Positions 8,855-57,050 of a DNA stretch of 64,000 bases are shown one piece after another; position 1 is the first letter of the stretch, and each line of letters starts with the position of its first letter. This DNA comes from Clostridia bacterium (lineage in GTDB: Bacteria; Bacillota; Clostridia; TANB77; CAG-508): assembly GCA_022793875.1 (NCBI GenBank), contig JAAWDR010000004.1, forward strand, positions 4,287 to 68,286. The letters run 5' to 3'. Below the pieces are notes generated by a model that was not told where the DNA came from, ran no database searches, and saw only the letters and a list, made by a program, of their open reading frames with translations. The position numbers were made by a program, and so were the translations under genes.

Positions 8855-11227
8855 TTATTTTAATTGATATTTACTCATCCAATATCCTGCTAATTCTTCT
8901 CCTTCATCATGTACTCCATTATTATTATTATCCCACCAAAATGCTTCTGGTATTTGATATCCTTTTGTTGGTGTTGTTTGCTCTTTATCTATAAAGTTTA
9001 CTACTGACTTTTGTGGATTTGTTGTAGCATCTAATTTGTATTCATATCTTGGTATCCATACAAAATATGTTTCCGTTCCTTCATTCGTTGTTACTATATT
9101 TGCCCATTGTTGTTTACTGTAATCATACCAATTTTCTGGTGCTTTTTCTGATATTGGTGTTCTTTCTTCTGTTCCATCTTCTTTATATACCACATAATAT
9201 GTGCATTCTTGATTAAATCCTTTTCCATCTACTATTAATTCTGGTTCGTTTGCTGCAATTGTTTTTATTTTCTTGGTTACTGCTGCTATATATTCATTTG
9301 TGTTTTTGTTTCTTGCTATTATATTTATTGTGTATGTTTTATTCTTTTCTAGTCCTTTGAATATATAGTACTCTTTACTACTGTCTCCTTTTGCATCTGT
9401 CATTTTTCTTCCATTTATATAGTATTCATATCTTGCATTTTCTCCTGCTTCTTCAATTGATGTTCCTGTAATATCTCCTATTTTTATATCAGTTCCTCCT
9501 GCTGTTATTTCTGCATCCATTCTTGGTGCACATTCTGCTGTTAATTGATATTTTGTCATCCAATATCCTGTTAGTTGTTCTCCTTCATCTGCCACTCTAT
9601 CACTATCATTATCCCACCAAAATGCTTCTGGTATTTTGTATCCTGATGTTGCTTCTGTTCTTGTTCCTTTTATAAATCTTACTATTGATTTTTGTGGATT
9701 TGATGTTGCATCTAGTTGATATTCATATCTTGGTATCCATACATAATATGTTTCTAGTCCATCATTTCTGGTCACTATGTTTGCCCAATTTGCTATTGTG
9801 TAATCATACCATTCATCTGGTGCTTTTTCTCTTATTGGTATTTCATTATGCTCATTTCCTTCTTCGTCCCAATATACATAAAAGGTTGTGTCTGGATCAA
9901 AGGCATATTCTTCTTTTCCTTCTTCATTTTTTGCTTTTAACTGTGGTTCGTTTACATCTGCTACTGCATATACTCTTGTCATGCTTCCTATTACTTCTCC
10001 ATCTTCGTCTAATGCAGTTACATTTAGTGATTTGTCTCCTTTCGCTAATCCTTTTATTAGATGGTCTGGTGCTTGTTTTTCTTCTTCTGTTTGTCCTTCA
10101 TTTGCATTTGGACATTCATATGTATACAAAATATTTCCATTTACTGAATATGTATATTTTGCTACTATTTTATCTGTCTTTATTTTTATTTCTTGTACAT
10201 TTATTGATGTTACTGTTGCGGCTGTATTGTAGTCTAGTACATATTCTCCTAAATCAGATAATTGGTATTTACTCATCCAATATCCTGGTAATTGTTCTCC
10301 ATCATCTTCTACTTCATTATTATTTGCATCCCACCAAAATGCTTCTGGTAATACATATCCTTGTTTCTGTAATTCTTCCCATGTTGTCTCTTCTTCTGTT
10401 TCTGCATCTTTATAATTATTATTTACATCAATAAATTTTACGTCCATTCTTTCATTTCCTGCTACTGAATTATTTACATCTTTTTTGTATACATATCTTG
10501 GTATCCATACATAATAACTCTCTATTCCATTGCTTTCTACATATAGATTTGCCCATTTTTGATTTTTATAGTCATACCAATCTTCATCTGGCTTTTTATT
10601 TATCCAATTTCCTGGAACTAAATTTCCTTCTCTATCATACGCATATCTTGTTGTATCTTTTGAAAATCCTGTATTTAATTGTGGTGTACATAAATACACA
10701 TCATTTACATTTTCATAATTTCCATTTACTACCCCCATTTTTGATGGTGGTATATATTCCCAAATTTTGATTCCTATTTCTTCGCACCATTTTACTTGGT
10801 CATTATTGTCTTTTATGTCTTTCTGTGATACATAGTATAACTCTCCTTCATGTATCATTACATATTTCTCTTCTGTTTTTCCTACTTCTGATAATAATTT
10901 TGTTATATCTACTACAACATCTTCTGTTATTTCTAAGCTTTCATCAACAATTATCTTTTTTAATATTTCTCCAGCATATACTTCTGTACTTTCTCCATTT
11001 ATTGATAAATTCATTTTTTGTATATCCCATTGCTCTGCTATTGTTGACATTTTTGTCTTAAATCTTGCTTCTTGAGCTCTTTTGAATAGCCCACTTCCTG
11101 TTAGTGTTCCTATTGTTAGTCCTGCAAGTATTAACAAAATTATTATTGTTATTACTAATGCTATTAGTGTTATTCCTCTATTTTTTCTTTCATTTTTTGT
11201 TGATACTTTTTCTTTATTCCATATCAT
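8855..11227 (-). CDS. Family-L giant protein, copy 1: prepilin-like N-terminus, three Trp-rich modules, Ig/FN3-like spacers
   Basis: 790 aa. The basic leader ends in G18, followed by ITLIALVITIIILLILAG. Three copies of W.DY..(N/Q).WAN....G.E.YYVWIPRYEYK ... GY.IPEAFWWD ... GE.L.GYWMSKYQL. Confidence 0.85.
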   Translation of the reverse strand: MIWNKEKVSTKNERKNRGITLIALVITIIILLILAGLTIGTLTGSGLFKRAQEARFKTKMSTIAEQWDIQKMNLSINGESTEVYAGEILKKIIVDESLEITEDVVVDITKLLSEVGKTEEKYVMIHEGELYYVSQKDIKDNNDQVKWCEEIGIKIWEYIPPSKMGVVNGNYENVNDVYLCTPQLNTGFSKDTTRYAYDREGNLVPGNWINKKPDEDWYDYKNQKWANLYVESNGIESYYVWIPRYVYKKDVNNSVAGNERMDVKFIDVNNNYKDAETEEETTWEELQKQGYVLPEAFWWDANNNEVEDDGEQLPGYWMSKYQLSDLGEYVLDYNTAATVTSINVQEIKIKTDKIVAKYTYSVNGNILYTYECPNANEGQTEEEKQAPDHLIKGLAKGDKSLNVTALDEDGEVIGSMTRVYAVADVNEPQLKAKNEEGKEEYAFDPDTTFYVYWDEEGNEHNEIPIREKAPDEWYDYTIANWANIVTRNDGLETYYVWIPRYEYQLDATSNPQKSIVRFIKGTRTEATSGYKIPEAFWWDNDSDRVADEGEQLTGYWMTKYQLTAECAPRMDAEITAGGTDIKIGDITGTSIEEAGENARYEYYINGRKMTDAKGDSSKEYYIFKGLEKNKTYTINIIARNKNTNEYIAAVTKKIKTIAANEPELIVDGKGFNQECTYYVVYKEDGTEERTPISEKAPENWYDYSKQQWANIVTTNEGTETYFVWIPRYEYKLDATTNPQKSVVNFIDKEQTTPTKGYQIPEAFWWDNNNNGVHDEGEELAGYWMSKYQLK

Positions 11228-11255
11228 TTTTTTCCTCTTTCTTTAATATTTTTTA

Positions 11256-11960
11256 TTAATATCCACTACCTATAACTACTACTGCACGACTACGCCATGA
11301 CTTAACATATGAAGCATCATAATGAGTAATACTACCACTAGTAAAAGTCTCATTATGCTCACCATAATATGAAAATATACTTCCTGAATATGCACGAACT
11401 AAACCTGCCAAATGTGGAAATCTTCCTTTAAACCATTGAGACGCTCCACTTCCATGCCATCCTGCTGTTTCGGAAACAGCATCTCCGATTTTTGCAACAT
11501 AACTACTTTCATATACATTTTTGTACTTTCCCACTGCATTCTTAAAATTTGCTATCTCTAATGTTGAATGTCCTGCTGCTACCCATTCTTTATTTAAATT
11601 TATATATATACCAGACTTATTCCCTGTTGTTGATTCTCCATCTGCTACTTTTCCTTGCTTTCCATATGCTGATGCTGAAAGAATAGCCATTGCTCCATAC
11701 TCTGTGTTTTTCTGCATATGTATATCTAGATTATTTGGTGTTCCCGTTGTATCCAGATTACTTCCAACTTCTCCTGCTAATCCTAGCGTTCCTCCTGTTG
11801 ATTCCATTTTTCTTATATTGATTAGCCAATTATTTATGGTGTCAGCTTTTCCTGGATTTCCATTTGCTTGCAATGCTGCTTGCGATTTTATTGGATTTGC
11901 TATTAAACATATTGCTGATATTCCAATTATTGATAATAAAACTTTTCCTTTTAATTTCAT
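11256..11960 (-). CDS. Family-S secreted protein, copy 1
   Basis: 234 aa. Sec signal ...NPIKSQA/ALQANG and core HMQKNTEYGAMAILSASAYG, GWHGSGAS. Its stop is 28 nt upstream of the L1 start. Confidence 0.8.
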   Translation of the reverse strand: MKLKGKVLLSIIGISAICLIANPIKSQAALQANGNPGKADTINNWLINIRKMESTGGTLGLAGEVGSNLDTTGTPNNLDIHMQKNTEYGAMAILSASAYGKQGKVADGESTTGNKSGIYINLNKEWVAAGHSTLEIANFKNAVGKYKNVYESSYVAKIGDAVSETAGWHGSGASQWFKGRFPHLAGLVRAYSGSIFSYYGEHNETFTSGSITHYDASYVKSWRSRAVVVIGSGY

Positions 11961-12020
11961 TGTTTTTTCTTCCTTTCCTCTTTTGATTTAATTCATTATA
12001 TATTTTGCTATTTTGAAACA

Positions 12021-12049
12021 CAACAAAAAGTGACCTTTTTACTGGTCAC
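12021..12049 (-). terminator. Rho-independent terminator after L2
   Basis: On the minus strand, GTGACCAGTAAAAAGGTCAC is followed by TTTTTGTTG. Confidence 0.6.
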
Positions 12050-12075
12050 TTTTTTACATAACATTCTGCCAAGTT

Positions 12076-14430
12076 TTATTTCAATTGATATTTACTCATC
12101 CAATATCCTGATATTTGTTCCCCTGCATCTTGTATTCCATTACTATTGTTATCCCACCAAAATGCCTCTGGTATTTTATATCCTGCTGTTGCCTTTGTTG
12201 TATCTTTTGATATGAAATTAATATCTATTCTTCTATTTGCTGTACTTAAACCACCTCTATCACTTAATATCTTATATTCATACCTTGGTATCCATACAAA
12301 ATATGATGTTGTTCCATTTCCTGTTGTTACTATATTTGCCCATTGTTGTTTTGTATAGTCATACCAATCTTCTGGTGGTTCTTCTGTTATTGGTACTCTT
12401 TTTTCACTTCCATCTGCATTATATACTACATAATATGTACATGATGGATTAAATCCTTTTCCATCTATTATTAACTCTGGTGCATTTGCTTCATTTGTTT
12501 TTATTTTCTTTGTTACTGCTCCTATATATGCATTATTTGTTCTATTTCTTGCTATTATATTTATTGTATATGTCTTATTTGCTTCTAATCCTGTAAATGC
12601 ATAATGTTCTGTACTACTATCTCCTTTTGCATCTGTCATTCTCTTTCCATTTATATAATATTCATATCTTGCATTTTCTCCAGCTAATGTTATTAATGTT
12701 CCCGTTATATCGTTTATTCTGATTACACTACTTCCTGCTGTCATTTCTGCATTCATTCTTGGTGTACTTTCCTCTGATGTTAATTGGTATTTGCTCATCC
12801 AATACCCTGTTAATTCCTCATTTTCTGTTCTCTTTCCATCATTATTATTGTCCCACCAAAATGCTTCTGGTATTTTATATCCTGATGTTGGTGTTGATCT
12901 TTTCCCTTCTATAAAGTTTATTATTGATTTTTGTGGATTTGATGTTCCATCTAATTGATATTCATATCTTGGTATCCACACATAATATGATTCTAATCCA
13001 TCATTTCTTGTTACTATATTTGCCCAATATGCTGATGTATAGTCATACCATGTATCTGGTGCTTTCTCTCTTATTGGTATTTCATTATGCTCATTTCCAT
13101 CATCATCCCAATATACATAGAATGTTGTATCTTTGTCAAATCCTGTTAAGTCTGGTTCATTTACATCTGCTACTTCATATACTACTGTTTTACTTCCTAT
13201 TACTTCTCCATTTGCATCTAATGCTGTTACATTTATTGATTTATGTCCTTTTACTAATCCACTTATTAGCTTATCTGGTGCTTGTGTACTTCCACCTTCT
13301 TTGCAATCATATGTATATAATATGTTTCCATTTATTGCATATGTATATTTTGCAACTTCTCTAACATTTGTTAAATGGCTTGTATCTAATTTTATGTTCT
13401 GGATATTTATTGATGTTACTGTTGCTGCTGTATCATAATCTATTACATATCCTTCTAATTCTGATAATTGGTATTTACTCATCCAATATCCTGGTATTTG
13501 TTCTCCTGCATCTTCTTTTCCATCACTATTATTATCCCACCAAAATGCTTCTGGCAACACATATCCTTGTTTTTTTAATTCTTCCCATGTTGTTTCTTCA
13601 TCTGTTTCTGCATCTTTATAGTTATTATTTGTGTCTACTAGTTTTACGTCCATTCTTTCATTTCCTGCAACTGAGTTCTTTGTATCTTTTTTATATACAT
13701 ATCTTGGTATCCATACATAATAACTTTCTATTCCATTGCTTTCTACATATAGATTTGCCCATTTTTGATTTTTATAATCATACCAATCTTCTTCTGGTTT
13801 CTTATTTATCCAATCTCCTGGTACTAAGTTTCCATCCCTATCATATGCATATCTTGTTGTGTCTTTTGAAAATCCTACATTTAATTGTGGTGTGCATAAA
13901 TACACATCATTTACATTTTCATAATTTCCATTTACTACTCCCATTTTTGATGGTGGTGTATATTCCCATATCTTTATTCCTATTTCTTCACACCATTTTA
14001 CTTGGTCTTTGTTATTTTTTATATTTTTTTGTGATACATAATACAATTCCCCTTCATGTATTATTGTATATCTTTCTTCTTCTTTTCCTACCTCTGGTAC
14101 TAATTTCTTTATATCTACAACAACATCTTCTGTTATTTCTAAGCCTTCATCAACTATTATCTTTTTTAATACTTCTCCTGCATATACTTCTGTGCTCTCT
14201 CCATTCATTGATAAATTGATTTTATATATATCCCATTGTTCTGCTATTGTTGCCATTTTTGTTTTAAATTTTGCTTCTTCTGCTCTTTTAAACAATCCAC
14301 TTCCTGCTAGTGTTCCTATTGTTAATCCTGCCAAGATTAACAATATAATTATTGTTATTACTAATGCTATTAATGTTATTCCTTTATTTCTTTTGTTTTT
14401 TGTTGATATTTTTTCTTTATTCCATATCAT
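12076..14430 (-). CDS. Family-L giant protein, copy 2
   Basis: 784 aa, colinear paralog of 8855-11227 with the same leader and three Trp-rich modules. Confidence 0.85.
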   Translation of the reverse strand: MIWNKEKISTKNKRNKGITLIALVITIIILLILAGLTIGTLAGSGLFKRAEEAKFKTKMATIAEQWDIYKINLSMNGESTEVYAGEVLKKIIVDEGLEITEDVVVDIKKLVPEVGKEEERYTIIHEGELYYVSQKNIKNNKDQVKWCEEIGIKIWEYTPPSKMGVVNGNYENVNDVYLCTPQLNVGFSKDTTRYAYDRDGNLVPGDWINKKPEEDWYDYKNQKWANLYVESNGIESYYVWIPRYVYKKDTKNSVAGNERMDVKLVDTNNNYKDAETDEETTWEELKKQGYVLPEAFWWDNNSDGKEDAGEQIPGYWMSKYQLSELEGYVIDYDTAATVTSINIQNIKLDTSHLTNVREVAKYTYAINGNILYTYDCKEGGSTQAPDKLISGLVKGHKSINVTALDANGEVIGSKTVVYEVADVNEPDLTGFDKDTTFYVYWDDDGNEHNEIPIREKAPDTWYDYTSAYWANIVTRNDGLESYYVWIPRYEYQLDGTSNPQKSIINFIEGKRSTPTSGYKIPEAFWWDNNNDGKRTENEELTGYWMSKYQLTSEESTPRMNAEMTAGSSVIRINDITGTLITLAGENARYEYYINGKRMTDAKGDSSTEHYAFTGLEANKTYTINIIARNRTNNAYIGAVTKKIKTNEANAPELIIDGKGFNPSCTYYVVYNADGSEKRVPITEEPPEDWYDYTKQQWANIVTTGNGTTSYFVWIPRYEYKILSDRGGLSTANRRIDINFISKDTTKATAGYKIPEAFWWDNNSNGIQDAGEQISGYWMSKYQLK

Positions 14431-14456
14431 TTTTTTCCTCTTTCTTTAATTTCTTT

Positions 14457-15134
14457 TTAAAATCCATTTCCTACTACTATGACTGCTCTACTAAACCATG
14501 GTTTAGTATACCAAGTTGAGTCTCTATCTCCGAACTTGGACTGAGCACGATACGCAAATATACCATTCTGATATGCACGTAATATTCCTACACTATCCAT
14601 TATATTCCAATCAGAATAATTACTTCCATGCCATCCTCTTGTTTCAGTAATAGCATCTCCTATTTTAGCTACATATGTATTAGTATATATATTCTTATAC
14701 TTTCCTTCTGCATTTTTGAAATTTACTACATTAAAATTATTAATTCCTGCTACTACCCATTCTATATTTAAAAAAATATATATTCCTGACTTATTTCCCG
14801 TAGTTGTTTCTCCATCAGCTATCTTTTTTTGATTCCCATAAGCTGACGCTGATAATATTGCCATCGCTCCATATTCTGTATTTTTTTGCATATGTATATC
14901 TATATTATTTGTTTCTCCTGAGTCTGTTAAATTTCCGTTTATCCCTGCCGCTAGTCCTAGTGTTCCTCCTATCGCTTCCATTTTCCTTATATTTATTAGC
15001 CAATTATTTATTGTATCTGTCTTTCCTGTATTCCCATTTGCTTGTAATGCTGCTTTTGATTTGATTGGATTTAATATCAGGCATATCGCTGATATTCCAA
15101 TTATTGATAATAAAAATTTTTCTTTTACTTTCAT
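14457..15134 (-). CDS. Family-S secreted protein, copy 2
   Basis: 225 aa paralog. Its stop is 26 nt upstream of the L2 start. Confidence 0.8.
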   Translation of the reverse strand: MKVKEKFLLSIIGISAICLILNPIKSKAALQANGNTGKTDTINNWLINIRKMEAIGGTLGLAAGINGNLTDSGETNNIDIHMQKNTEYGAMAILSASAYGNQKKIADGETTTGNKSGIYIFLNIEWVVAGINNFNVVNFKNAEGKYKNIYTNTYVAKIGDAITETRGWHGSNYSDWNIMDSVGILRAYQNGIFAYRAQSKFGDRDSTWYTKPWFSRAVIVVGNGF

Positions 15135-15258
15135 TGTTTTTTCTCCTTTTTCTTTTGATTTACTTAATTTTATATTTTGTCTTTTTCAAAAACAATAAAA
15201 GTATTACTTTTTACTATTCACTTTTTTACATAATCAATGTACATTTTTCAAATTCATT

Positions 15259-15933
15259 TTAAAATCCATTGCCAACTACTATGACTGCACGTGAAGAATA
15301 TACTCTATTATTAAGTGCTATTCCACTAGTATCACCTGCTCCTGCAAAATATGAAAACAAACTACCTGAATATGCACGAATAACCCCTGTATTACTATTA
15401 TTAATCCATCTAGAAGCTCCGCTTCCATGCCATCCATTTGTTTCAGTTATAGCATCTCCTACTTTTGCTACATATGTTGCTGTATATATATTTTTATATT
15501 TTCCTAATGCATTTTTAAAATTCGTTGAACTTAAATCATTAAGTCCAGCTGATACCCATTCCTTATTTAGTGCAATATATATACCAGACTTATTTCCTGT
15601 AGTTGTTTCTCCATCAGCTATTTTTTTTTGATTTCCATAAGCTGACGCTGATAATATTGCCATCGCTCCATATTCTGTATTTTTTTGCATATGTACATCT
15701 ATATTATTTGTTTCTCCTGAGTCTGTTAAATTTCCATTTATTCCTGCCGCTAGTCCTAGCGTTCCTCCTATTGCTTCTATCTTTCTAATATTGATTAACC
15801 AATCATTTACAGTTGCTGTTGAATTTCCATTCCCATTTGCTTGTAATGCAGCCTTCGATTTTATTGGATTCAGTATTAAACATATTGTGGATATTCCTAT
15901 TATTGATAATAAAATTTTTTTCTTTACTTTCAT
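15259..15933 (-). CDS. Family-S secreted protein, copy 3
   Basis: 224 aa paralog. Its upstream intergenic region is near-identical to that of copy 2. Confidence 0.8.
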   Translation of the reverse strand: MKVKKKILLSIIGISTICLILNPIKSKAALQANGNGNSTATVNDWLINIRKIEAIGGTLGLAAGINGNLTDSGETNNIDVHMQKNTEYGAMAILSASAYGNQKKIADGETTTGNKSGIYIALNKEWVSAGLNDLSSTNFKNALGKYKNIYTATYVAKVGDAITETNGWHGSGASRWINNSNTGVIRAYSGSLFSYFAGAGDTSGIALNNRVYSSRAVIVVGNGF

Positions 15934-16062
15934 TGTTTTTTTCTCTCCTTCTTCTTTTGATTTACTACATTTTATATTTTGTCTTTTTCAAAAACAATAA
16001 AAGTATTACTTTTTACTATTCACTTTTTTACATAATCAATGTACATTCTTTATTGCAACCTT

Positions 16063-16746
16063 CTAAAATCCACTTCCTACTACGACCACGGCACGGCTAG
16101 ACCACTGCCTAGTGTAGATAGCGTCAACGTAGCTGTTGTCGCCTCTACCATAATACGAGAACAAACTACCCGCATACGAACGAAGTAATCCGCTGCTGAG
16201 GCAGATGGTCATCCACTGAGACGCCCCACTTCCATGCCATCCATTTGTTTCAGTTATAGCATCCCCTACTTTTGCTACATAACTTTCTGTATATATATTT
16301 TTATATTTTCCTACTGCATTTCTAAAGTTTTCTAGATAGTTTCCTAATTCATTACCTCCTGCTGCTACCCATTCTTTATTTAAATTTATATATATACCAG
16401 ACTTATTCCCTGTTGTTGATTCTCCATCTGCAACTTTTCCTTGCTTTCCATATGCTGATGCTGAAAGAATAGCCATTGCTCCATACTCTGTGTTTTTCTG
16501 CATATGTATATCTAGATTATTTGGTGTTCCCGTTGTATCCAGATTACTTCCGACTTCTCCTGATAAGCCAAGCGTTCCTCCTGTTGATTCCATTCTTCTT
16601 ATATTTATTAGCCAATTATTTATTGTCCCTATCGAACCTGGATTTCCATTTGCTTGCAATGCTGCTTTTGATTTGATTGGATTCAGTATTAAACATATCA
16701 TTGATATTCCAATTACTGATAACAAAAATTTTTCTTTTACTTTCAT
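16063..16746 (-). CDS. Family-S secreted protein, copy 4 (GC-rich 3' end)
   Basis: 227 aa paralog. The central part matches copy 1. The last ~50 codons use GC-rich codons atypical for this window. Confidence 0.8.
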   Translation of the reverse strand: MKVKEKFLLSVIGISMICLILNPIKSKAALQANGNPGSIGTINNWLINIRRMESTGGTLGLSGEVGSNLDTTGTPNNLDIHMQKNTEYGAMAILSASAYGKQGKVADGESTTGNKSGIYINLNKEWVAAGGNELGNYLENFRNAVGKYKNIYTESYVAKVGDAITETNGWHGSGASQWMTICLSSGLLRSYAGSLFSYYGRGDNSYVDAIYTRQWSSRAVVVVGSGF

Positions 16747-16948
16747 TTTTTCACTTCTCCTTCTTCTTTTGATTTATTTCATTATATATTTTGTCTTTTT
16801 TTAGAACAATAAAATCTCCCCTTTTTACTAATAACATTTTTACATAATGTCGAATTCTAATAATTTATTTTGTAAAAACTTCATAGAAAAATATTGAAGG
16901 TATTATTTATAAATGCTATAATGAAATAAAAACAAGAGGTAATTAATA

Positions 16949-18032
16949 TTGAAATTAGAAGAATTAAATTTAACAGAAAAAATTGGACAAATGATAATGA
17001 TTGGACTAGACACAAACTATATAACAGAAAGAATTAAAACAATGATAACTAAATATAAGATTGGTGGAATAATCTTGTATAGAAAGAATTTTAATACATA
17101 TCAAGAAATGATTAAATTGATAAATGATTTAAAAAGTCTAAATAGAGAGAATAGACTTCCTTTATTTATTGCAATAGACCAAGAAGGTCGGGAGAGTAAA
17201 TAGAATGCCACCAGAAATAAAAAATTTACCACCCGCAAATAAATTAGCATCTCTTAATAATAAAGAGATTATCATTGATTCTGCAAAAATAACAGGAAAA
17301 CTATTAAAAGAGTCAGGTTTCAATTTAAATTTTGCTCCTGTATTAGATATTAAACGTTTTGATGACGGACATCCTATTGGTGATAGATGTTATGGAAAAA
17401 CAAAAGAAGAAGTTACAGAATATGCAATCCCTGTTATGAAAGAATTACAAAACCAAGGAATTGTTTCAGTAATTAAACACTTTCCTGGCCATGGTGCAAC
17501 CAAACAAGACTCTCATGCCTTGTTACCTGTAATAAACTCTAATATTAAAAATTTACAAAACGAAGATATGTATCCATTTGAACACGCAATTAATCAAGGA
17601 GCTGATGCAATACTTGTAAGTCATCTACTAATCCCAAAAATAACTGGCATTTATCCAGCATCACTATCAAGAAAATTTATTACTACATATTTGAGAAAAA
17701 AATATAAATTTAGAGGTCTTGTAATTACAGATGACTTAAAAATGAAAGCAATAAAACTCATATATGGTGCTGATTTAGCTGTCGAAAAAGCTTTTAAAGC
17801 TGGAAATGATATTATTGTTTTTAGATTTAACCATTCAGAAGAAACACGTATTCTTGATAAAATTTTATTTCTAGTAAAAAAAGGAAAAATTAAGGAATAT
17901 CAAATTAACAGAAGTGTTAAAAGAATAATTAGAATAAAAGAAAAATATAATATTTCTGATGAATCTGTTGAAGGAGTTTCAGATATAAATAATTTAAATA
18001 ATAGAATTGAAGAGATTAGAAGTCTGTTCTAA
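16949..18032 (+). pseudogene. nagZ: Beta-N-acetylhexosaminidase (GH3, NagZ-like) interrupted by a 1-nt frameshift
   Basis: ORFs 16949-17203 and 17205-18032 join if c17189 is removed, giving IAIDQEGGRVNRMPPEI. Motifs KHFPGHG and VITDDL are present. Confidence 0.8.
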
Positions 18033-29421: not shown

Positions 29422-29943
29422 TCAGTTATCATATAAATAATCCAATGCTTGTTTAACATTTGTTATATCTGTACCATCTTTTGATTTCCATGCACTATCT
29501 GATGGTATAAATTCGACCATTTCTGCTGTAATAATTTCTGGTACTGTAACATTTTCTATTCCTTTATATTCTGTTGTTCCATCTGTTATATAAAATATAA
29601 ATCCATCATTTGTTATTAATTTTATTTTATTTATATTTTTATCTTCTATACTTTCACTAACCCAGTCTCTTTGCTTAGAATCATTAAAGGCTATATTTAG
29701 CCTTTCTAATGTAATTCCACCATTGTAAGATAATCTTGTTTCTACTTTTATTAGCTCTATTTTTTCCTTATATTGTGCAATTAAAGTTTCTTCTTTTGCT
29801 AATTCTGCTTTTTTTAACAATCCACTTCCTGCTAAGGCTGATATTGATATTCCTGCTAAAATTAATAAAATTATGATTGTGATTACGAGTGCTACTAATG
29901 TAATACCATTATTATTACAAAATTTATCTTTTTTCTCTTGCAT
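29422..29943 (-). CDS. Small protein with the same prepilin-like leader as family L
   Basis: 173 aa. MQEKKDKFCNNNG/ITLVALVITIIILLILAGISISALAGSGLLKKAELAKEE. Confidence 0.75.
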   Translation of the reverse strand: MQEKKDKFCNNNGITLVALVITIIILLILAGISISALAGSGLLKKAELAKEETLIAQYKEKIELIKVETRLSYNGGITLERLNIAFNDSKQRDWVSESIEDKNINKIKLITNDGFIFYITDGTTEYKGIENVTVPEIITAEMVEFIPSDSAWKSKDGTDITNVKQALDYLYDN

Positions 29944-38660: not shown

Positions 38661-40184
38661 TTATATCTGATTATAATAATTCATATTTATATCTAAACCT
38701 AAATGCCACCTACCAATAAAATCAATCAATAGATAATCATCCAAATTATATATAGGTTCTTGTATTACATTTCCTTTTCTATCAATGCTTCCCCATCTAC
38801 CATCTTTTTTTACTGCAGCAAATCCATAATCATTTTGTTCTGTTGCATCATTATAAATATAATCTACTATAACTTTTCCACTCTTATCTGTATATCCATA
38901 TTTTCCATCTTTTTTACTTAAAAACATTGTTCTATTTGGAAAAATATCTGATTCTTGTTTTTCTTCAAATTTAAAATTATAATACTTATAATTATCATCA
39001 ACTCTTAATTTTAAATATCCTTTAGTTTCATTTAGCTCAACCAATATTCCACTTACTTTGCTTTCTAAATTGCTATTGAATATATTAGAATTGAATTTGT
39101 CGTCTTCTGCTATATAAATATCTGCTTTCTCGTTATATACAATTGATGTATATTCAAAAGGTAGTTTTTCTTCTTTTTGAATATTTATAATTCCATATTT
39201 TTGACCTAATTTAGCTATAAATATTCCCATTTTAGATTCTTTTAATAAATCATAATTAGCTTCTATTATAACTTCTCCTGTTAAATTCATTATTCCATAT
39301 TTATTTGCTTTTTCAAATATTACTGCATTTTCTTGACTTGCTAATATTTCTTTAATAGAATCAAATCCTGTTATTAAAACATCTTCTCCATTTCTATTTA
39401 CTAATTTTTGCTTTCCTTCTGATACTACTACATATAAATCATTTTTGTATATTTTTTCAATAGAATCATATTTCATTTCTAATACTTTATTTTTTGAATA
39501 GTCTATAATTCCATATTTTCCACTATCATCTTTTACAATAAATCCTGATTTATTATCTTTACCCAATATGTCTATATCTGCATATTTAGCTTCAACTACT
39601 ATTTTTCCTTCATTATCTACTATTCCATATTTTCCATCTTTTTTTATCTTAAATGAATTTTCTATTCCTAAAACTGCCACAATTTCTTCATATTCTGGTT
39701 TCAAAACTTCTTTTCCATTTAAGTTTATTAATCCAAATCTTTCATTTTTTTGAACTTTTAGTACATTTTCTTCATACAAAAGATTTCCATTCTTATCTTG
39801 ATTTGTTATTGCTTCTATTTTTTCATAACCTTTAAAAATTTCTTCATTTTTTTCATTTATCACTTTGGTTTTATATGTTCCATTTTCATAATCTGTATCA
39901 TATGTAACAATAAATACTCCTGCTTTATTGTTTGGAATTACTATCATTTCTGCATATGAAGGATCTGTTACATAATTTCCAGTTGAGTTTATTACTCCCC
40001 ATTTATTGTCTTTATATACTGAAAAATAGCTTTCACTTGTTATTTTTCCACTTGATTCATCTTTTGTTAATAATCCTTTTATTATAAATATGAACATTAC
40101 TATTACTACTATTGCTATAATTACTGCAAATACCTTTTTCATATTTAGTTTTGGTTCATCATCATATCTTTTTCCTCTACTCAT
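38661..40184 (-). CDS. WG-repeat (KWG) protein with N-terminal TM anchor
   Basis: Repeated (K/R)(W/Y)G(V/I)(I/V)(N/D) units: KWGVIN, RFGLIN, KYGIVD, KYGIID, KYGIMN, KYGIIN, KYGYTD, RWGSID. Confidence 0.8.
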   Translation of the reverse strand: MSRGKRYDDEPKLNMKKVFAVIIAIVVIVMFIFIIKGLLTKDESSGKITSESYFSVYKDNKWGVINSTGNYVTDPSYAEMIVIPNNKAGVFIVTYDTDYENGTYKTKVINEKNEEIFKGYEKIEAITNQDKNGNLLYEENVLKVQKNERFGLINLNGKEVLKPEYEEIVAVLGIENSFKIKKDGKYGIVDNEGKIVVEAKYADIDILGKDNKSGFIVKDDSGKYGIIDYSKNKVLEMKYDSIEKIYKNDLYVVVSEGKQKLVNRNGEDVLITGFDSIKEILASQENAVIFEKANKYGIMNLTGEVIIEANYDLLKESKMGIFIAKLGQKYGIINIQKEEKLPFEYTSIVYNEKADIYIAEDDKFNSNIFNSNLESKVSGILVELNETKGYLKLRVDDNYKYYNFKFEEKQESDIFPNRTMFLSKKDGKYGYTDKSGKVIVDYIYNDATEQNDYGFAAVKKDGRWGSIDRKGNVIQEPIYNLDDYLLIDFIGRWHLGLDINMNYYNQI

Positions 40185-40457: not shown

Positions 40458-41630
40458 ATGGAATTTTTAGATTACTTAGATGAAGAAGTTAATCATACTT
40501 ATCACCACGATAATTATAAGTCAAAATTTAAAATTAAAGATATTTTTAATGACCACTGGTACTCTTTTTTAGATGATAACCCTAACTTGAACATTAGACC
40601 TATTGTTCTTGAAGAAGTCGAAAAGATGATGGGCTGTGGTTCTCTTTCTAATGGTTATGCTGTCTATACTTGCGACCATTGTAATAATTATTTATATGTG
40701 CCTTTTACTTGTAAATCTCGTTTTTGTTGCTCTTGTGGTACTAAATCTTCTTTAGATAGAGCTGACACTATTTCCAGAAAATCTATCAACTGCACTCATA
40801 GACATATGACTTTTACTATTCATAATGACCTTTGGCCTCTTTTTCAAAAAGATAGATCTTTACTTAATCTCCTTTTTGATGCTGTTTCTTCCACTATTCT
40901 TTCTTGGTTCTATGAGCAAAATCATAAAGAAAATTTTACACCTGGTTTTATTTCCACTTTACATACCTTTGGTCGTGATTTAAAATGGAATCCTCATATT
41001 CACGTCCTTATTACTGAAGGGGCTGCTGGAAACTTTACTCATTGGAAAAAGTTCAATGTTTTTCCTTATATTATGCTTCGTAATCGATTTCAAACTACTT
41101 TACTTTCTTTACTTGAAAAGCATTTTGGTAAGAAAAAATTTAAAGCTCTCAAAAATCATATCTATAAAACTTCTTCTAATGGTTTTTATGTTCATGCTCC
41201 TAAAGTTAAACATCGTAATATTAAATCTACTGTTACATATGTTATTCGTTATTCTGGTAAACCTGCTATGGCTCAATCTCGTATTCTTGACTATGATGGA
41301 GAATATGTTACTTTTTGGTATGATAGACATGAAGATAATCAACATGTTACTGAAAAAATTCATGCTTATGATTTTATCAAAAGACTTATTATTCATATTT
41401 ATGATAAACATTTTAATGTTGTTAGATATTATGGGCTTTATGCTAAAAAACATAAATTTTCTGATAAATTCAATTACATGCTTAAGCCTCATGTTGCTGA
41501 ATTTAGAAAACAATTTAAAAATTGGAGATATCGTATTGAATTATATTTTAAACATGCCCCTCTTAAATGTTCTTGTGGGCATACTTTTCACTTTGACTAT
41601 CTTGTTCAAAAGTCGTATAATACCTCTTAA
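40458..41630 (+). CDS. IS91 family transposase (zinc-binding N-domain plus Y2 HUH domain)
   Basis: Cys-rich N-terminus (CGS..YTCDHCNN..FTCKSRFCCSCG), HTFGRDLKWNPHIHVLITEG, YVIRYSGKPAM and RYYGLYAKK. Confidence 0.8.
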   Translation: MEFLDYLDEEVNHTYHHDNYKSKFKIKDIFNDHWYSFLDDNPNLNIRPIVLEEVEKMMGCGSLSNGYAVYTCDHCNNYLYVPFTCKSRFCCSCGTKSSLDRADTISRKSINCTHRHMTFTIHNDLWPLFQKDRSLLNLLFDAVSSTILSWFYEQNHKENFTPGFISTLHTFGRDLKWNPHIHVLITEGAAGNFTHWKKFNVFPYIMLRNRFQTTLLSLLEKHFGKKKFKALKNHIYKTSSNGFYVHAPKVKHRNIKSTVTYVIRYSGKPAMAQSRILDYDGEYVTFWYDRHEDNQHVTEKIHAYDFIKRLIIHIYDKHFNVVRYYGLYAKKHKFSDKFNYMLKPHVAEFRKQFKNWRYRIELYFKHAPLKCSCGHTFHFDYLVQKSYNTS

Positions 41631-42353: not shown

Positions 42354-42653
42354 TTATAAAACTCTAAACCGATCTAGAATGATATCGAGCCACGCTATCA
42401 TATTTGAGGCATCTGAACACCCATTTATAACCATCCATACCAAATCCCCATCAACTCTAACCTCCGCACTTACACCAACCCTATATGTTTGAACGCTGTG
42501 GGTTGTATATACACTGAAACGCTCGGCATCCGCTATTTCTTCTCTTCTACAACTTCCAGACCATACTTTGATCCAAGGCATATGGGTCGACGTAGAATTA
42601 GTACTTCCTAATTTTATTTTAACTCTTCCATATTCGCCGTAATTTTTCACCAA
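42354..42653 (-). CDS. C-terminal continuation of the pilin-like Big_2 protein in another frame (GC-rich)
   Basis: 99-aa ORF opening right at the end of 42619-43758. A 1-nt shift within AATAAATA would fuse them. G+C is visibly higher than in the surroundings. Confidence 0.5.
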   Translation of the reverse strand: MVKNYGEYGRVKIKLGSTNSTSTHMPWIKVWSGSCRREEIADAERFSVYTTHSVQTYRVGVSAEVRVDGDLVWMVINGCSDASNMIAWLDIILDRFRVL

Positions 42654-43758
42654 CGAGATCCATATTTATTACAAACCCTGCGTAATTTATCTGCGGACTC
42701 TTTAAAGGCAGTCTAATGTGATTACGCAAATTATTATAAGATGTATTGGTAAAAGAATCGTTATAAACAACCTTGATAACTTCAGATGTAAATAATTCAC
42801 TAAGATCATTACTACCTGAAATCGTTATAGGTGGGCTGACAACATTTAAATCGCACTCTCGACTTTTATTCCCTGCTTTTGCATATATTTTAGTTCTTCC
42901 TGATTTACCTGCAGTTATCATTCCATTATCTGATATGGTTGCAACACTTTCATCCAAACTATTCCATTCTATATTATCTGTTGTATTGCTTGGTTCTACT
43001 GTTGCTGTTAACTGTAATGTTTTTCCTACTTCTACTGTTGCACTTTCTTGTGATATACTTAATCCTGTAGCTGGTATTCTTGTTGTTGCTGTAATTTTCT
43101 TTGTTACACCACTATTTACTTCTTTTACTGTTATTTCTACATCTCCTATTTTATCTTTTGCTGTTAATTTTATTTTTCCATTTTCTGTTTTACTTGCTTC
43201 TATTGTAGTACTATCACTAGATATTACTGTTACTTCTGGCTCTTTACTTATTTCTCCTACATTTGTTTCTTCTGTATTTACTATAATATTTCCATTATTA
43301 AATAGTATTTCATAATATTTTCCTTGTACTTCTACAAAATATCTTACGGTTGTCCCCTCTGAATAAACAAATGTATATGTTACTGTTTTTTCTGTATTTC
43401 TCTCTACTGTCACATTTTCTTCGCTTAATGCTATTCCTGTTATAGCATTTTCTCCACTAGTAATTTCCTTTATCTTATATCCTTTTTCTTTTAAGTCACT
43501 TATTACTCCTGCCATTGTGGTTTGTTCGCCACCTGCTATTTCTTCCATTTGTCCTTCCATATATGATATTCTTGCGAATTCTTCTATTTCTTTTAGCTCT
43601 GATATTTTTGTTGCTTCTTGTGCTTTTCCAAATAATCCACTATTTGTTAATGAATTTATTGTTATTCCTGCTAATATTAACAATATTATTATTGTTATTA
43701 CTAGTGCAACTAATGTTATACCATTATTTTTGCAAAATAAAACATTTTTCTTTATCAT
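42619..43758 (-). CDS. Prepilin-like-leader protein with a Big_2 (bacterial Ig-like) domain
   Basis: MIKKNVLFCKNNG/ITLVALVITIIILLILAGITINSL. Big_2-like GLSISQESATVEVGKTLQLTATVEPSNTTDNIEWNSLDESVATISDNGMITAGKSG. Confidence 0.75.
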   Translation of the reverse strand: MIKKNVLFCKNNGITLVALVITIIILLILAGITINSLTNSGLFGKAQEATKISELKEIEEFARISYMEGQMEEIAGGEQTTMAGVISDLKEKGYKIKEITSGENAITGIALSEENVTVERNTEKTVTYTFVYSEGTTVRYFVEVQGKYYEILFNNGNIIVNTEETNVGEISKEPEVTVISSDSTTIEASKTENGKIKLTAKDKIGDVEITVKEVNSGVTKKITATTRIPATGLSISQESATVEVGKTLQLTATVEPSNTTDNIEWNSLDESVATISDNGMITAGKSGRTKIYAKAGNKSRECDLNVVSPPITISGSNDLSELFTSEVIKVVYNDSFTNTSYNNLRNHIRLPLKSPQINYAGFVINMDLVGEKLRRIWKS

Positions 43759-47499: not shown

Positions 47500-50400
47500 T
47501 TATCCAATAACAAACTTTTTAATAGCAAATGTCCCAGCACCTAAAGTAATTAAAGTTGTAATTCCTATAACAATTGGTAATACATAATCTTTGTTTTCAC
47601 CAGTATTTGGAATAATTATAACTCTCTCTGAATTTGCTGCATTAAAGTTAAACTTACTTCCATTCCATGTAACTTTTACAGGAGTACCTGTATTAAACCC
47701 TGGTGTTTTTGTAACTTCTACAATTTCAGACTTATTATCAAATGTATTATCCTCTGTACTTGTAAGTAATTTAGAAACATGTAAATCAACTGTATTTGAT
47801 TCTCCTGGTGCTAACGCCTTTGATAAATGTGATGTCAAATAAGTTCTAGTATTATTTATATATGATGTATTCTCTTTTTCACTCGCATTAACAGAAGTCA
47901 AATAATTTTCATCTTTTTCATTCCATTTATCATCAAGAATTGATAATCTTCCATCAATATAATCTATTAATCCAGTTACTGATGCTTTAACTAAATCTGC
48001 TGGTCTCTTATCAATACCATAATAGTAGTAATTATTAGACATATAATCTAATTCACCAATATTTGTTACTTTCATTACATAAGTTATTTCAATAGTAGCA
48101 CCTTCTATCAGCTCATTATCCATTTCTGTTCTTATTAAAGCTGGTCTAACATAAGTTGTATAATCGTGTGCTCCTGTTACATTTCCGTTTTCATCTATAT
48201 TTGCATCTACTAATATTTGACCATTTGCTAATGTAATCTTATATTTTGAAATTCTCTTAGATAAATCTAATTGTTGTTTAGGCCTTTCTGCTATTCCAAA
48301 ATCTATATTTTCTACTGTAAACTTAACTTGAGGTACTGTACCATCTGTGATTGTTGTTTCATATTCTACACTAAATGCTATTATTGGTGTTAAAGATTCC
48401 ATTTTTGTTTGAGAAATATAGCTTGAACCACCACTATATGCTTTATTTATTTCATTTTCTAGAATATTAATCTTAACTGCTTCCATTTCATCATCTATTT
48501 TTTCTCTAATTGAATAATTATCTAAAGCATCTGACTTTCTTGTATTTTTACTTATTGTATCATTTCCATATTCTGAACCTCTGTACCAATATGAATCATT
48601 TTGTTTTCTATTTGAATCATATATTGTTCCTTTATAATATTGAACTTTATATGTTTGGTCACCCCATATATATGTCAAGATATAATTTCCTGGTATATAT
48701 CCTGCAAATGTATAATCTCCATTTTCATTTGTTGTTGTAGTCATTTCAATTCTTTCACCATTGTAACTGCTATCATCTTTTCCTATTTCACGTAATTTTA
48801 CAGTTATTCCACTAAGAGGTGTCTCACCATTATCTAATATTCCATTTCCTATTCTCTCTTGTTCTTTATATACAAGATTACTATTTTTTCCTGTTGAATC
48901 TACAAATGCTTTACCTTTTAAATCTCTTTCATCTTTAAATTCTAGTCGTAATGATCTTGCAGCATCTGTATCATCCTCATATGTATTAAAGTTACCTGGT
49001 ATTGCATTTCCTGGTACTGAGTCTTGATCTATTACAGCAACTGGTGTAGATACATTACCATTTTTAAATGTTGTATATGAATTAATTTCTGTAACATTAT
49101 TTATTAAATCTCCACTATTCATTATAGATAACACTGCTGTTCTATCTAATCTAAATTGTGCATACAAATAACTTGTAGTTCCTGAATTCAATAATGTATT
49201 TGTATTAATTATATATTTTGAATATGTACCATTATATGCAGTTTTTGCTCCAAATCCTATATTTCCTGTAATATTATCTGAATTATCTATTCCTGTTCCA
49301 ACTGCTATTAATTCAGTTCTACTATCTGTATAATTTACTATATTATTAATTCTTCCTAAATATTGAGATTCGTTTCTTAAAGCAATCTTATATGTTACAT
49401 ATACTTTAATCTCATTATCTTTATGATTTGGTGCTTCATAAACAGCATCTGATTTGTATATTGCTCTATCATATGTTCCTCTATTATTTTGGAATTTTAT
49501 TCCTACATTCCAAGAAGCATCTCCATTTTCACTTCCATCCGCATTATATCTTACTTTAGCATATCTATATATATGTGAAAATCCATTTACTGAAACTTTT
49601 ACATCGTACAAATCTTGAGTAAGTGCAAAATCTGATTGTGCTTTTTCAAATAACCCTAAATTTACATATCTTATTTCTTCAAATGTTGGAGTAAATCCAC
49701 TATATAGATTATATCCAGCTTCATTTGTTCTAGCATAAACATCACATCCTGTATGACTATTAATTGTACTTGCATAATTATTTACACTATTATAATTTAC
49801 TGTAACTCCATTTATATATACAGATTGACTTCCATTTCCATTAACACTTGTAAATCTACTATCTAATACATTTCTTGTTGCTGTATCAATAGCTTTTGAT
49901 CCCTTATTTTCACTTAATTTAGGAGCTACTGATTGATATGTTATACCACAATATTCAAATTCAACATAGTAACTTCCTGCTTGTAATTCATCCAAATTAA
50001 TGTCTGTAAATTGATATTCTCCACCATTTATTTCTGAATATAATCCTAATTCTGATGTAGTTGTTGTTTTAATAACACTTCCACCTGATTTTAAGTATAC
50101 TTTTATTCCATTTACTCCTGCTTCACCTTGATCAAATATATCATTTCTAATAGCTTGTTTTCCTTCATTTCCATCCATCCATACATATCCAGACAATTTA
50201 ACCAAATTTTGATGATTATATACATTTCTACTTTGTAATATTGGATTATTACTATTAAGAGAAAGTGTCCATGATCCCCCAGCACTATATCCATAATGTG
50301 GATTACTTACTTCTTTTGCTGTAACAGATGTTCCTTGTTTTATTCTTTCAGTCCACCTAGTATCATCTATTACTTCACCTGTATTCTTATTATACTTAGT

Positions 50401-56714: not shown

Positions 56715-57050
56715 AATATTACCTCCCAAAATATAAAATGCTATAATTTTTAATACATTTTTCGACATTTTTACATAATATCTCTAAATAAAATTATACA
56801 CCAAAAATAGTGATTTTTCAACCATTTTTAATAAAATATTACTTATATTTTTACAATATATATTATAGTTACATTCATTTATAAAGTAAAGCCCTTCTAA
56901 TCCACAATATTTAAACAATTTGTGCACTATTTACGGAATCCTTAATATTACAAAATATTAAATTTTCTTTACTTTTTTATCAAATTTTGTAATTTTTTAT
57001 TCTTATTTCAACCTACTTAGCCTATTTCCCTAAGTTTTTTTATGTAATAT

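Follow-up and report, generated by a model that had tools for sequence, protein, structure and literature searches.

What do the six consecutive genes at positions 8855-16746 of this stretch encode, and how might their products work together? The stretch, here called the window, comprises 64,000 nucleotides of a contig assigned to an uncultured Clostridia bacterium of the mouse gut (JAAWDR010000004.1), and the six genes all lie on its minus strand in the order S4, S3, S2-L2, S1-L1. Two of the open reading frames (ORFs) encode large proteins, the pilin-like modular stalk protein L1 (8855-11227, 790 aa, MCI8616785.1) and its paralogue L2 (12076-14430, 784 aa, MCI8616787.1). The other four encode small ones, namely the secreted, putatively lectin-like S1 (11256-11960, 234 aa, MCI8616786.1), S2 (14457-15134, 225 aa), S3 (15259-15933, 224 aa) and S4 (16063-16746, 227 aa, MCI8616790.1). 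In GenBank the proteins of the locus (MCI8616785-MCI8616790) are all named "hypothetical protein [Clostridia bacterium]". We propose, with moderate confidence, that they form a two-piece cell-surface adhesin, in which L would provide the stalk and S would dock onto it as a head with a hypervariable C-terminus.

The conservation of S and L as neighbors argues for such a partnership. Of 71 S genes surveyed in 60 related loci from dozens of assemblies of gut metagenome-assembled genomes (MAGs), 40 have an L gene as their immediate downstream neighbor on the same strand and 11 have another S gene there, within an S-S-L array, while a further 11 abut a contig end; eight of the other nine have an L gene or an L-module remnant directly upstream, and the ninth has an L gene about 1.9 kb downstream. 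This adjacency persists down to about 32% identity. Moreover, there are at least five distinct in-frame L-S fusions (P0322, P0433, and the MGBC143692 ORFs L036 7418-9898, L050 351-2795 and L050 4330-6594), and every fusion reads ..G[FY]W[IM]SKY[EQK][LIV]., 4-15 residues, and then ..LQ[AS]N... Therefore, in the fusions the exact C-terminus of L1/L2 meets the predicted mature N-terminus of S, at the S signal-peptidase site. P0391 is a less secure case: this protein, encoded on a 2012-bp ENA contig, has at its N-terminus the C-terminal KH-like domain of the GTPase EngA/Der (PF14714), joined directly to an L-type immunoglobulin (Ig) domain, and probably stems from a chimeric contig or a faulty gene call, though its junction between module and S matches that of the other fusions. 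In two distant relatives (L061 8099-10831 and L062 8714-10732), one L-type module and one S-type domain are contiguous within one chain, reading WVWIPRYKY..HPAFTFG..GIWYAKFEMS and then IRNME..DIHMQKNMEWGAVTYLAYSKYG..TTGTVYGIYDMNGG..SSRPVLAV; to judge from such chains, module and S probably were a single polypeptide in the ancestral state.

In their adjacency and in-frame fusions, S and L thus behave as a genuine two-component unit, as the preliminary description had supposed, and their co-occurrence in related genomes, on which it had staked that claim, is conserved. What does not stand is its view of the system as lineage-specific. At 90% identity, at least 773 clusters of S and at least 4463 of L are spread over many uncultured Clostridia of the gut, with single-chain relatives in Erysipelotrichaceae and Bacilli; almost every member of the S family is a protein on its own, 220-250 aa long, and comes from uncultured Clostridia in the gut of mouse, rabbit or human. 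One could still argue that S and L are independent and merely co-regulated, a free secreted lectin next to a membrane-anchored fibrillar protein, with the fusions as incidental shuffling. Each S gene does have a promoter-like element of its own, S3 and S4 lack an immediate downstream L gene, the L family exceeds the S family several-fold in size, so that many L-type proteins must work without S, and a mirror-tree comparison revealed no specific co-variation. Yet almost every case that can be assessed shows adjacency, down to the identity given above, independent fusions share one junction at the S signal-peptidase site, and the distant single-chain relatives hold both parts contiguously, for which reasons we regard independence as unlikely.

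How would L reach and hold the cell surface? By its sequence, its N-terminus is demonstrably of the pilin type. A hydrophilic, Lys/Asn-rich leader of variable length ends in an invariant Gly and is followed by ITLIALVITIIILLILAG, with GITLIAL being invariant; L thereby has the layout of a class III signal, in which a short hydrophilic leader ending in Gly or Ala precedes about 20-25 mostly hydrophobic residues (PMC10191384). A profile of 11 L N-termini found, in the PDB, Geobacter PilA-N (9egp_A, E 2.4e-5), with the match running from the leader through about 50 residues, 7tgg_A (E 0.0024) and, at weaker E, PilA, MshA and S. sanguinis PilE1, while the GspG, PilA, ComGC and ComGE models reached L only at E 0.004-0.1, far under their cutoffs. 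The automatic annotation of L2 in IMG as "competence protein ComGC" evidently derives from the N-terminal 40 residues alone and is misleading for a protein of 784 aa.

The remainder of L is modular. In L1, alignment, profile and AlphaFold model together delimit an N-terminal region of residues 1-190 (10658-11227), comprising the leader up to Gly18, the ITLIALVITIIILLILAG segment, a predicted long alpha-1 helix (21-76) and a predicted alpha/beta head (87-180). The model (pLDDT 82.8) predicts two helices, residues 21-42 and 45-76, followed by a region of alpha/beta type (87-180) and then by three all-beta Trp-rich modules, with an Ig/fn3-like domain behind each but the last. The modules follow the general motif WYDY..WAN..YVWIPRYEY..PEAFWWD..GYWMSKYQL and were delimited by motif scan and tblastn self-hits, together with the all-beta prediction for module 1 (residues 191-322, 10262-10657; WYDY..WAN..YYVWIPRYVYK..PEAFWWD..GYWMSKYQL) and module 2 (429-561, 9545-9943), and with the fusion junctions for module 3 (661-790, 8858-9247), which ends in GYWMSKYQLK. 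Between them lie the Ig-like spacer 1 (residues 323-428, 9944-10261), recognized by its beta-sandwich prediction, and the Ig/fn3-like spacer 2 (562-660, 9248-9544), by a faint Pfam fn3 match; for both, Foldseek returned fn3 arrays. All these segments are on the minus strand. The chain stops directly after the KYQL strand of the last module. With the whole L model, Foldseek matched only fn3/Ig arrays, which is uninformative on the Trp-rich module, and in Pfam, NCBIfam and PHROGs there is no curated family for the modules, L itself yielding only sub-threshold N_methyl and fn3 matches. L1 and L2 are colinear paralogues, as had been described, with 77% identity, although 790 aa makes for a large rather than a giant protein; identity is 87% over the N-terminal region and module 1, and divergence is greatest in Ig1 (69%) and module 3 (67%).

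Two more proteins in the window carry a leader of this kind, each with NNG directly followed by ITLVALVITIIILLILAG and with Ala at position +5: a pilin-sized protein of 173 aa (29422-29943, minus strand), which matches the NCBIfam PpdD-like model NF007862 at E 6e-5, under its cutoff, and a protein of 379 aa (42619-43758, minus strand) that bears a Big_2 Ig domain. Further pilin-like genes occur within 10 kb of the S-L locus in the related MAG loci L008, L020, L028, L032, L042, L055 and L057. The invariant GITLIAL and the existence of further proteins with the same leader suggest, at the sequence level, a dedicated recognition step.

The pilin-type N-terminus also invites a different explanation, in which L, as a minor pilin without Glu5, would prime and cap a type 4 filament whose assembly machinery is encoded elsewhere, and S would be cargo that hooks onto the tip of L by its N-terminus and is taken out of the cell, or released, as the pilus extends, for secretion or display in the manner of CofB-CofJ or TcpB-TcpF. 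Tip-capping minor pilins without Glu5 do exist (PMC10191384), the CofB/TcpB systems (PMC6048534, PMC9565799, PMC10120004) offer precedents, other proteins of the window share the leader, one of them pilin-sized, and a secreted S with a conserved, disordered N-terminus is encoded beside a large pilin. However, the related loci examined never adjoin pilus machinery, no canonical major pilin is recognizable, since all leaders have Ala5, and the unit of module and S also occurs on non-pilin anchors. S furthermore brings its own Sec signal, and export from a monoderm needs no pilus; finally, PDB sequence searches brought up none of CofJ, TcpF, CofB and TcpB. Taken together, this makes a pilus-tip system of that type rather unlikely in our view.

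Turning to S, its four paralogues are 63-75% identical pairwise and contain each of the blocks quoted for them in the preliminary description (WLINIR, HMQKNTEYGAMAILSASAYG, TTGNKSGIYI, GWHGS and SRAV.V.G.G[FY]). Their Sec signal consists of MKVKEK, a hydrophobic core and NPIKSKA, with the next Ala as the first mature residue, and has no lipobox; the export signals claimed for both S and L have thus been borne out. In S4, the signal peptide spans residues 1-27, with predicted cleavage between KSKA and ALQANG, the conserved core residues 28-173, and the hypervariable C-terminus, as delimited by alignment and by regional ratios of nonsynonymous to synonymous substitution (dN/dS), residues 174-227 (16066-16227, minus strand). 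The mature N-terminus is among the best-conserved stretches of the family alignment, A28 and Q31 being invariant and L30, N33 and G34 nearly so, and residues 22-34 are the sole segment with pLDDT <50 in the AlphaFold monomer model of S4 (pLDDT 81, pTM 0.75). Conserved yet disordered segments are typical of docking peptides; being conserved but disordered in the monomer, the N-terminus of S therefore fits a peptide that is ordered only on its partner.

Which fold S adopts is less readily answered, as in Pfam, NCBIfam and PHROGs no family was matched by S, and neither the S profile nor those of the fusions and the L062 domain gave a usable match when run against PDB sequences. Nor did the Pfam and NCBIfam FGE models match S even at E 10, and PF03781 in particular, the FGE model of Pfam, picked up neither S nor the proteins in which it is naturally fused or part of a single chain, at cutoffs as loose as E 5-10. 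We nevertheless consider it fairly likely that S has an FGE-sulfatase/C-type-lectin fold. A Foldseek search of the PDB with the S model placed lectin/FGE-fold proteins in the eight best positions and in 15 of 34 overall, including TaqVP (the best match, if a weak one), CEL-I, FGE, PorK, PvdO and CD23, and a search of BFVD returned a SUMF-like phage protein and a C-type lectin; Foldseek E-values were 0.2-0.6, with template modelling (TM) scores of about 0.35 overall. The S profile finds the single-chain L061 and L062, from Erysipelotrichaceae and Bacilli MAGs, at E 1e-10, and these keep ..TTGTVYGIYDMNGGAYEYV... When the C-terminal halves of L061, L062 and P0433 were aligned by hhalign with an FGE reference alignment (12 sequences, of which human FGE was checked against the PDB and the others are annotated plasmid genes), the probability was 59%, with P 9.3e-5 and a score of 37.8; in two control sets with 100 shuffles each, the highest scores were 18.8 and 22.9, and a reversed alignment scored 17.8. 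The preliminary description had recognized no domain in S or in the Trp-rich modules of L, which holds inasmuch as neither belongs to a curated family, but is partly superseded by the pilin-type N-terminus of L and by the link of S, through intermediates, to the FGE/C-type-lectin fold.

If S shares this fold, might it be an enzyme? An FGE/SUMF1-EgtB-PvdO-type or other metal-dependent activity, directed at L, the cell wall or a host substrate, with L as substrate or scaffold, would accord with the transitive link to FGE-sulfatase and with the invariant polar cluster in the S core (D79, H81, N85, E87, T111-N114, E125, D162, H171 and R189). FGE, on the other hand, requires a Cys pair, and many members of the fold, among them the variable proteins of diversity-generating retroelements (DGRs) and PorK, are pure binding modules. 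Among 66 S sequences no Cys is invariant or nearly so, just two His are, and there is no His triad that could form a three-His iron site. Because S has no conserved Cys and only two invariant His, it is most likely a binding domain and not an FGE-type enzyme. As, in addition, the FGE models of Pfam and NCBIfam fail to match it and a hypervariable C-terminus is unusual in enzymes, we regard a catalytic role as improbable.

Variability in S is concentrated at its C-terminal end. Within the window, the core from LQANG to GWHGS is 70-87% identical with dN/dS of 0.21-0.34, while the 51-54 aligned codons after GWHGS are 37-56% identical, contain indels and have dN/dS of 0.41-0.87, as estimated from four of six pairs, dS being saturated in the other two. 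With dN/dS below 1 throughout, the variability of the S C-terminus is one of relaxed or mixed selection in these sequences, and positive selection is not proven. Copy-number expansion and C-terminal variability, both asserted in the preliminary description, hold, whereas its phrase "rapidly diversifying" is apt for the divergence relative to the core only, as dN/dS >1 was never seen. A DGR was considered as the source of the variability and discarded: no copy of an S 3' end exists outside the S genes that could serve as template repeat, no reverse-transcriptase-like ORF was found, and the S paralogues differ by indels.

The same observations bear on a possible origin of the locus from prophage- or DGR-derived receptor-binding proteins, a tail fiber together with a lectin-fold variable protein. 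DGR variable proteins do combine a lectin/FGE fold with a variable C-terminus, and TaqVP is the best, if weak, Foldseek match of S. Apart from the missing reverse transcriptase and template repeat, and the indels between paralogues, it is the surroundings that contradict such an origin. One flank of the locus carries ffh, gmk, an HD phosphohydrolase gene and an SDF transporter gene, the other a GH3 gene, tadA, rpoC and rpoB, with spoIIE and germination genes farther away; the S-L locus sits in the ordinary core chromosome. No PHROG family, no tblastn match in 50,697 phage genomes and no IMG/VR relative was found, upon which a phage origin was dismissed; the locus is not a prophage. We thus attach hardly any probability to a phage or DGR derivation.

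From this evidence, the two-piece adhesin may be pictured as follows. L would enter the membrane by its type IV pilin-like, class III N-terminal signal and, because residue +5 is always Ala, would either stay anchored by its hydrophobic alpha-1 helix or cap the tip of a type 4 filament, projecting its three Trp-rich beta modules with Ig-like domains between them. S would be exported by Sec, be cleaved at the site given above, and presumably fold as a non-catalytic, divergent FGE/C-type-lectin-like domain. We infer that it docks on L non-covalently through the ALQANG segment, most simply beside the C-terminal module. The conserved S core would then carry the fold and the interface to L, and the C-terminal 55-65 residues would form the ligand surface, probably for host or microbial glycans; in lectin-fold DGR proteins the variable region lies at the same C-terminal position. 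Tandem duplication of promoter-S(-L) units, finally, could supply one cell with several alternative heads.

Several of our results weigh against this proposal. In the mirror-tree test (12 pairs), S co-varied with module 3 no better than with other regions of L. Units of module and S also stand behind ordinary transmembrane anchors, in P0322, L061 and L062, so that a pilus is not required. In all 40 of 40 pilin-like leaders from the window and related loci, those of L1 and L2 included, residue +5 is Ala; Glu5 is common yet not universal among type IV pilins, and a tip-capping subunit without it is known (PMC10191384). With 16.9 and 18.4 bits, L stayed below the 21.2-bit cutoff of the Pfam N_methyl model PF07963. 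When every ORF of the window and the related loci was compared with E. coli HofB, HofC, GspE, GspF and GspO, no gene for a pilus ATPase, a platform protein or a prepilin peptidase emerged, neither in the window nor up to 10 kb away from any related locus, over 978 kb altogether, a result that concerns the vicinity of the locus and has no bearing on the rest of the genome; for the window itself, it had already been reported that these three and a sortase are missing, which we can confirm. As for the fold of S, none of the Foldseek matches in the PDB is significant, with E 0.56 or worse and TM 0.35 or lower, and the link to FGE is transitive and spans only about 54 columns. Direct hhalign of S, or of module plus S, against FGE pairs GYWiSKYQLs with F.idkyeVT, and TTGN.tGv..E.vA with n.GlyDm.GNvwEW, but was rejected as proof, since P was 0.02-0.04 and 1 of 30 column shuffles scored higher. 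Also, the invariant D79, H81, N85, E87, D162 and H171 might just as well belong to a catalytic site or a metal site.

Beyond the two-piece adhesin, a further-reaching scenario is possible, though we hold it to be doubtful: S and the L modules could be split halves of an ancestral lectin-fold unit, with the modules being completed in trans by S. A pilin-anchored stalk could then present up to three exchangeable heads, chosen from the set of S paralogues, and the Ala5 leader, which many proteins of these bacteria share, would mark a display route apart from classical type 4 pili. Were the modules indeed completed in this way, the result would be a combinatorial adhesin with a swappable tip.

How is the locus transcribed, and how did it expand? 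Its six ORFs with their coordinates and order, the gaps of 26 and 28 nucleotides within the S-L pairs and the terminator after L2 were all recovered as first described. The spacers S1-L1 (11228-11255, 28 nt) and S2-L2 (14431-14456, 26 nt) each contain an AAGAGG ribosome-binding site and no hairpin, and in the former no terminator was called; from these short, hairpin-free gaps with ribosome-binding sites, co-transcription of the S-L pairs is probable. A terminator-like hairpin of 11 pairs with a T-run lies just 3' of L2 (12054-12025), according to the terminator scan. Alignment of the four upstream regions shows that an element of about 95 nucleotides precedes every S gene with 72% mean column identity, and consists of a hairpin, a promoter-like site (TTGTTT-17 nt-TAAAAT) and a ribosome-binding site. 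It lies, for S1, in the inter-unit region (11961-12075), where the S2-L2 terminator is followed by the promoter-like element and ribosome-binding site; for S2, at 15135-15258, with a degenerate hairpin remnant, the promoter-like site and a ribosome-binding site; for S3, at 15934-16062; and for S4, at 16747-16900; like the genes, these elements and both spacers are on the minus strand. Only behind L2 is the hairpin well formed as a terminator (GTGACC..GGTCAC plus Ts); before S2, S3 and S4 it is degenerate. Since every S gene has the conserved hairpin/promoter-like element, the duplicated unit was a terminator/promoter plus S, with or without L; and since the hairpin is intact after L2 and degenerate elsewhere, amplification copied the terminator-promoter cassette. 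Transcriptional read-through between S genes might thus vary from unit to unit.

The complete S4-S3-S2-L2-S1-L1 order recurs on a JGI contig, and colinear parts of the locus, cut by contig ends, occur on three shorter contigs, from ENA, from the NCBI MAG GCA_949744685.1 and from the mouse-gut run ERR675592; as the layout is repeated on independent contigs, an assembly artefact is excluded. The window has a G+C content of about 28%. Rfam identified no RNA family at the locus, and PADLOC no match for S or L.

Some observations in the window and in related loci stand apart from the question of S and L function. Six paralogous L genes in two MAGs shift to the +1 frame at one spot between the pilin-like head and module 1, in MGBC143692 at L013 ~11290, L034 ~13360, L036 ~7440 and L050 ~370 and ~4355, and in SRR15730552_bin.38 at L042 ~7225. 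The DNA at the site reads ..AT(C/T) AAA CGG AGT.., with the AAA CGG A core kept and the flanking codons varying; the +1 frame goes on with the conserved NGVYLCTPKLDTGF, and the downstream ORFs remain open for 1.7-2.5 kb. CGG is almost unused in such genomes, with 1 in 12,762 codons in the window. To judge from these features, this looks like a programmed +1 frameshift (slippery AAA plus hungry CGG) or a conserved expression switch, and not like a sequencing error; the site is absent from L1 and L2 of the window. The neighboring GH3 (NagZ-like) gene (16949-18032, plus strand) is split at 17203/17205 into ORFs of 84 and 275 aa in different frames, and as the same split is present on the independent JGI contig L074, it is a real frameshift/pseudogene or a case of recoding. 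Two adjoining, very large candidate surface proteins of 1439 aa (47500-51819) and 1642 aa (51840-56768), both on the minus strand, carry SdrD_B and DUF11 repeats; their N-termini are of the ordinary signal type, and neither has the pilin-like leader. A gene of the IS91 family (Y2 transposase; 40458-41630, plus strand), situated between those for a WG-repeat protein (38661-40184) and for the pilin-like protein with the Big_2 domain, is the one mobile-element gene noticed in the window.

Why would such an adhesin matter? Uncultured Clostridia are major members of the mouse, rabbit and human gut, and their attachment to mucus, food particles and other microbes is poorly known. Literature searches on the S and L sequence motifs brought up nothing relevant. 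Two large families of the sizes given above, absent from Pfam, NCBIfam and PHROGs, now have an architecture that can be tested, in which a proposed pilin-type anchor carries a repetitive stalk, and the diversifying lectin-like head is encoded as a protein of its own. Should S dock on L, the pair would be a natural adhesin that changes its specificity by swapping a secreted subunit and, to our knowledge, the first monoderm counterpart of the CofB-CofJ/TcpB-TcpF principle. The split, fused and single-chain states form an evolutionary series for domain fission, and the invariant Ala5 leader raises the question whether pilin-like proteins are processed and displayed without pili.

How does the locus compare with systems that have been characterized? 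Modular pilins are known to carry adhesive modules (PMC8179133). The closest design to L is that of S. sanguinis PilB (pilin plus vWA) and PilC (pilin plus lectin), which likewise combine a class III-like segment, a pilin-type helix and head (predicted in L), and grafted modules (PMC8179133, PMC9934059), and with which it shares a monoderm host and a presumed role in ligand binding or adhesion. Unlike them, L has Ala at +5 in every member, a sub-threshold N_methyl score and no linked pilus operon, and its grafted part consists of three copies of an undescribed Trp-rich module, arrayed with Ig spacers; in contrast to the lectin part of PilC, S is encoded separately in this genome and secreted by Sec.

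The closest parallel to the pair is found in CofB-CofJ of enterotoxigenic E. coli and TcpB-TcpF of V. cholerae, where, as for L and S, a large modular pilin-like protein is encoded beside a small secreted partner (PMC6048534, PMC9565799, PMC10120004). The minor pilins CofB and TcpB bind their operon-encoded secreted partners via the partner's flexible N-terminus (PMC6048534, PMC9565799), so that a flexible, conserved N-terminus is a proven docking element there, and one we infer for S. Those systems belong to full type IVb pilus operons of diderms, and the partner needs the pilus for its secretion, whereas S has its own Sec signal and the S-L locus has housekeeping neighbors; moreover, S is multiplied into variable paralogues and in some relatives fused with L, unlike CofJ and TcpF. 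Neither CofB/TcpB nor CofJ/TcpF appeared in the PDB profile searches with S, the fusions or the L N-terminus, in the Foldseek search with S, or among the 50 Foldseek matches listed for L.

For the probable fold of S, the points of reference are TvpA, TaqVP, Mtd and PorK, members of the FGE/C-type-lectin fold that have the same order of motifs (..F.i.KYeVT.. / helix / ..EyGA.A.L.. / ..TTGN..G....EW.. / ..R.v.v), and as in these proteins, the variability of S is placed at the C-terminal end of the fold and catalytic residues are missing. S differs from other members of the fold in lying outside the Pfam model and in the erosion of GxYDMxGNxWEW, which is kept only in the distant single-chain relatives, and it differs from DGR proteins in that its diversity stems from gene duplication and ordinary divergence, and in that the N-terminal part of the unit apparently resides on L. 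The uncharacterized L061 and L062, in turn, are set apart from the L-S pair by an ordinary signal/transmembrane N-terminus, by one module instead of three, and by a long Cys-containing linker and insertions. The locus is therefore best described as a variation on the theme of a pilin-anchored adhesin with a secreted partner, built from two undescribed protein families.

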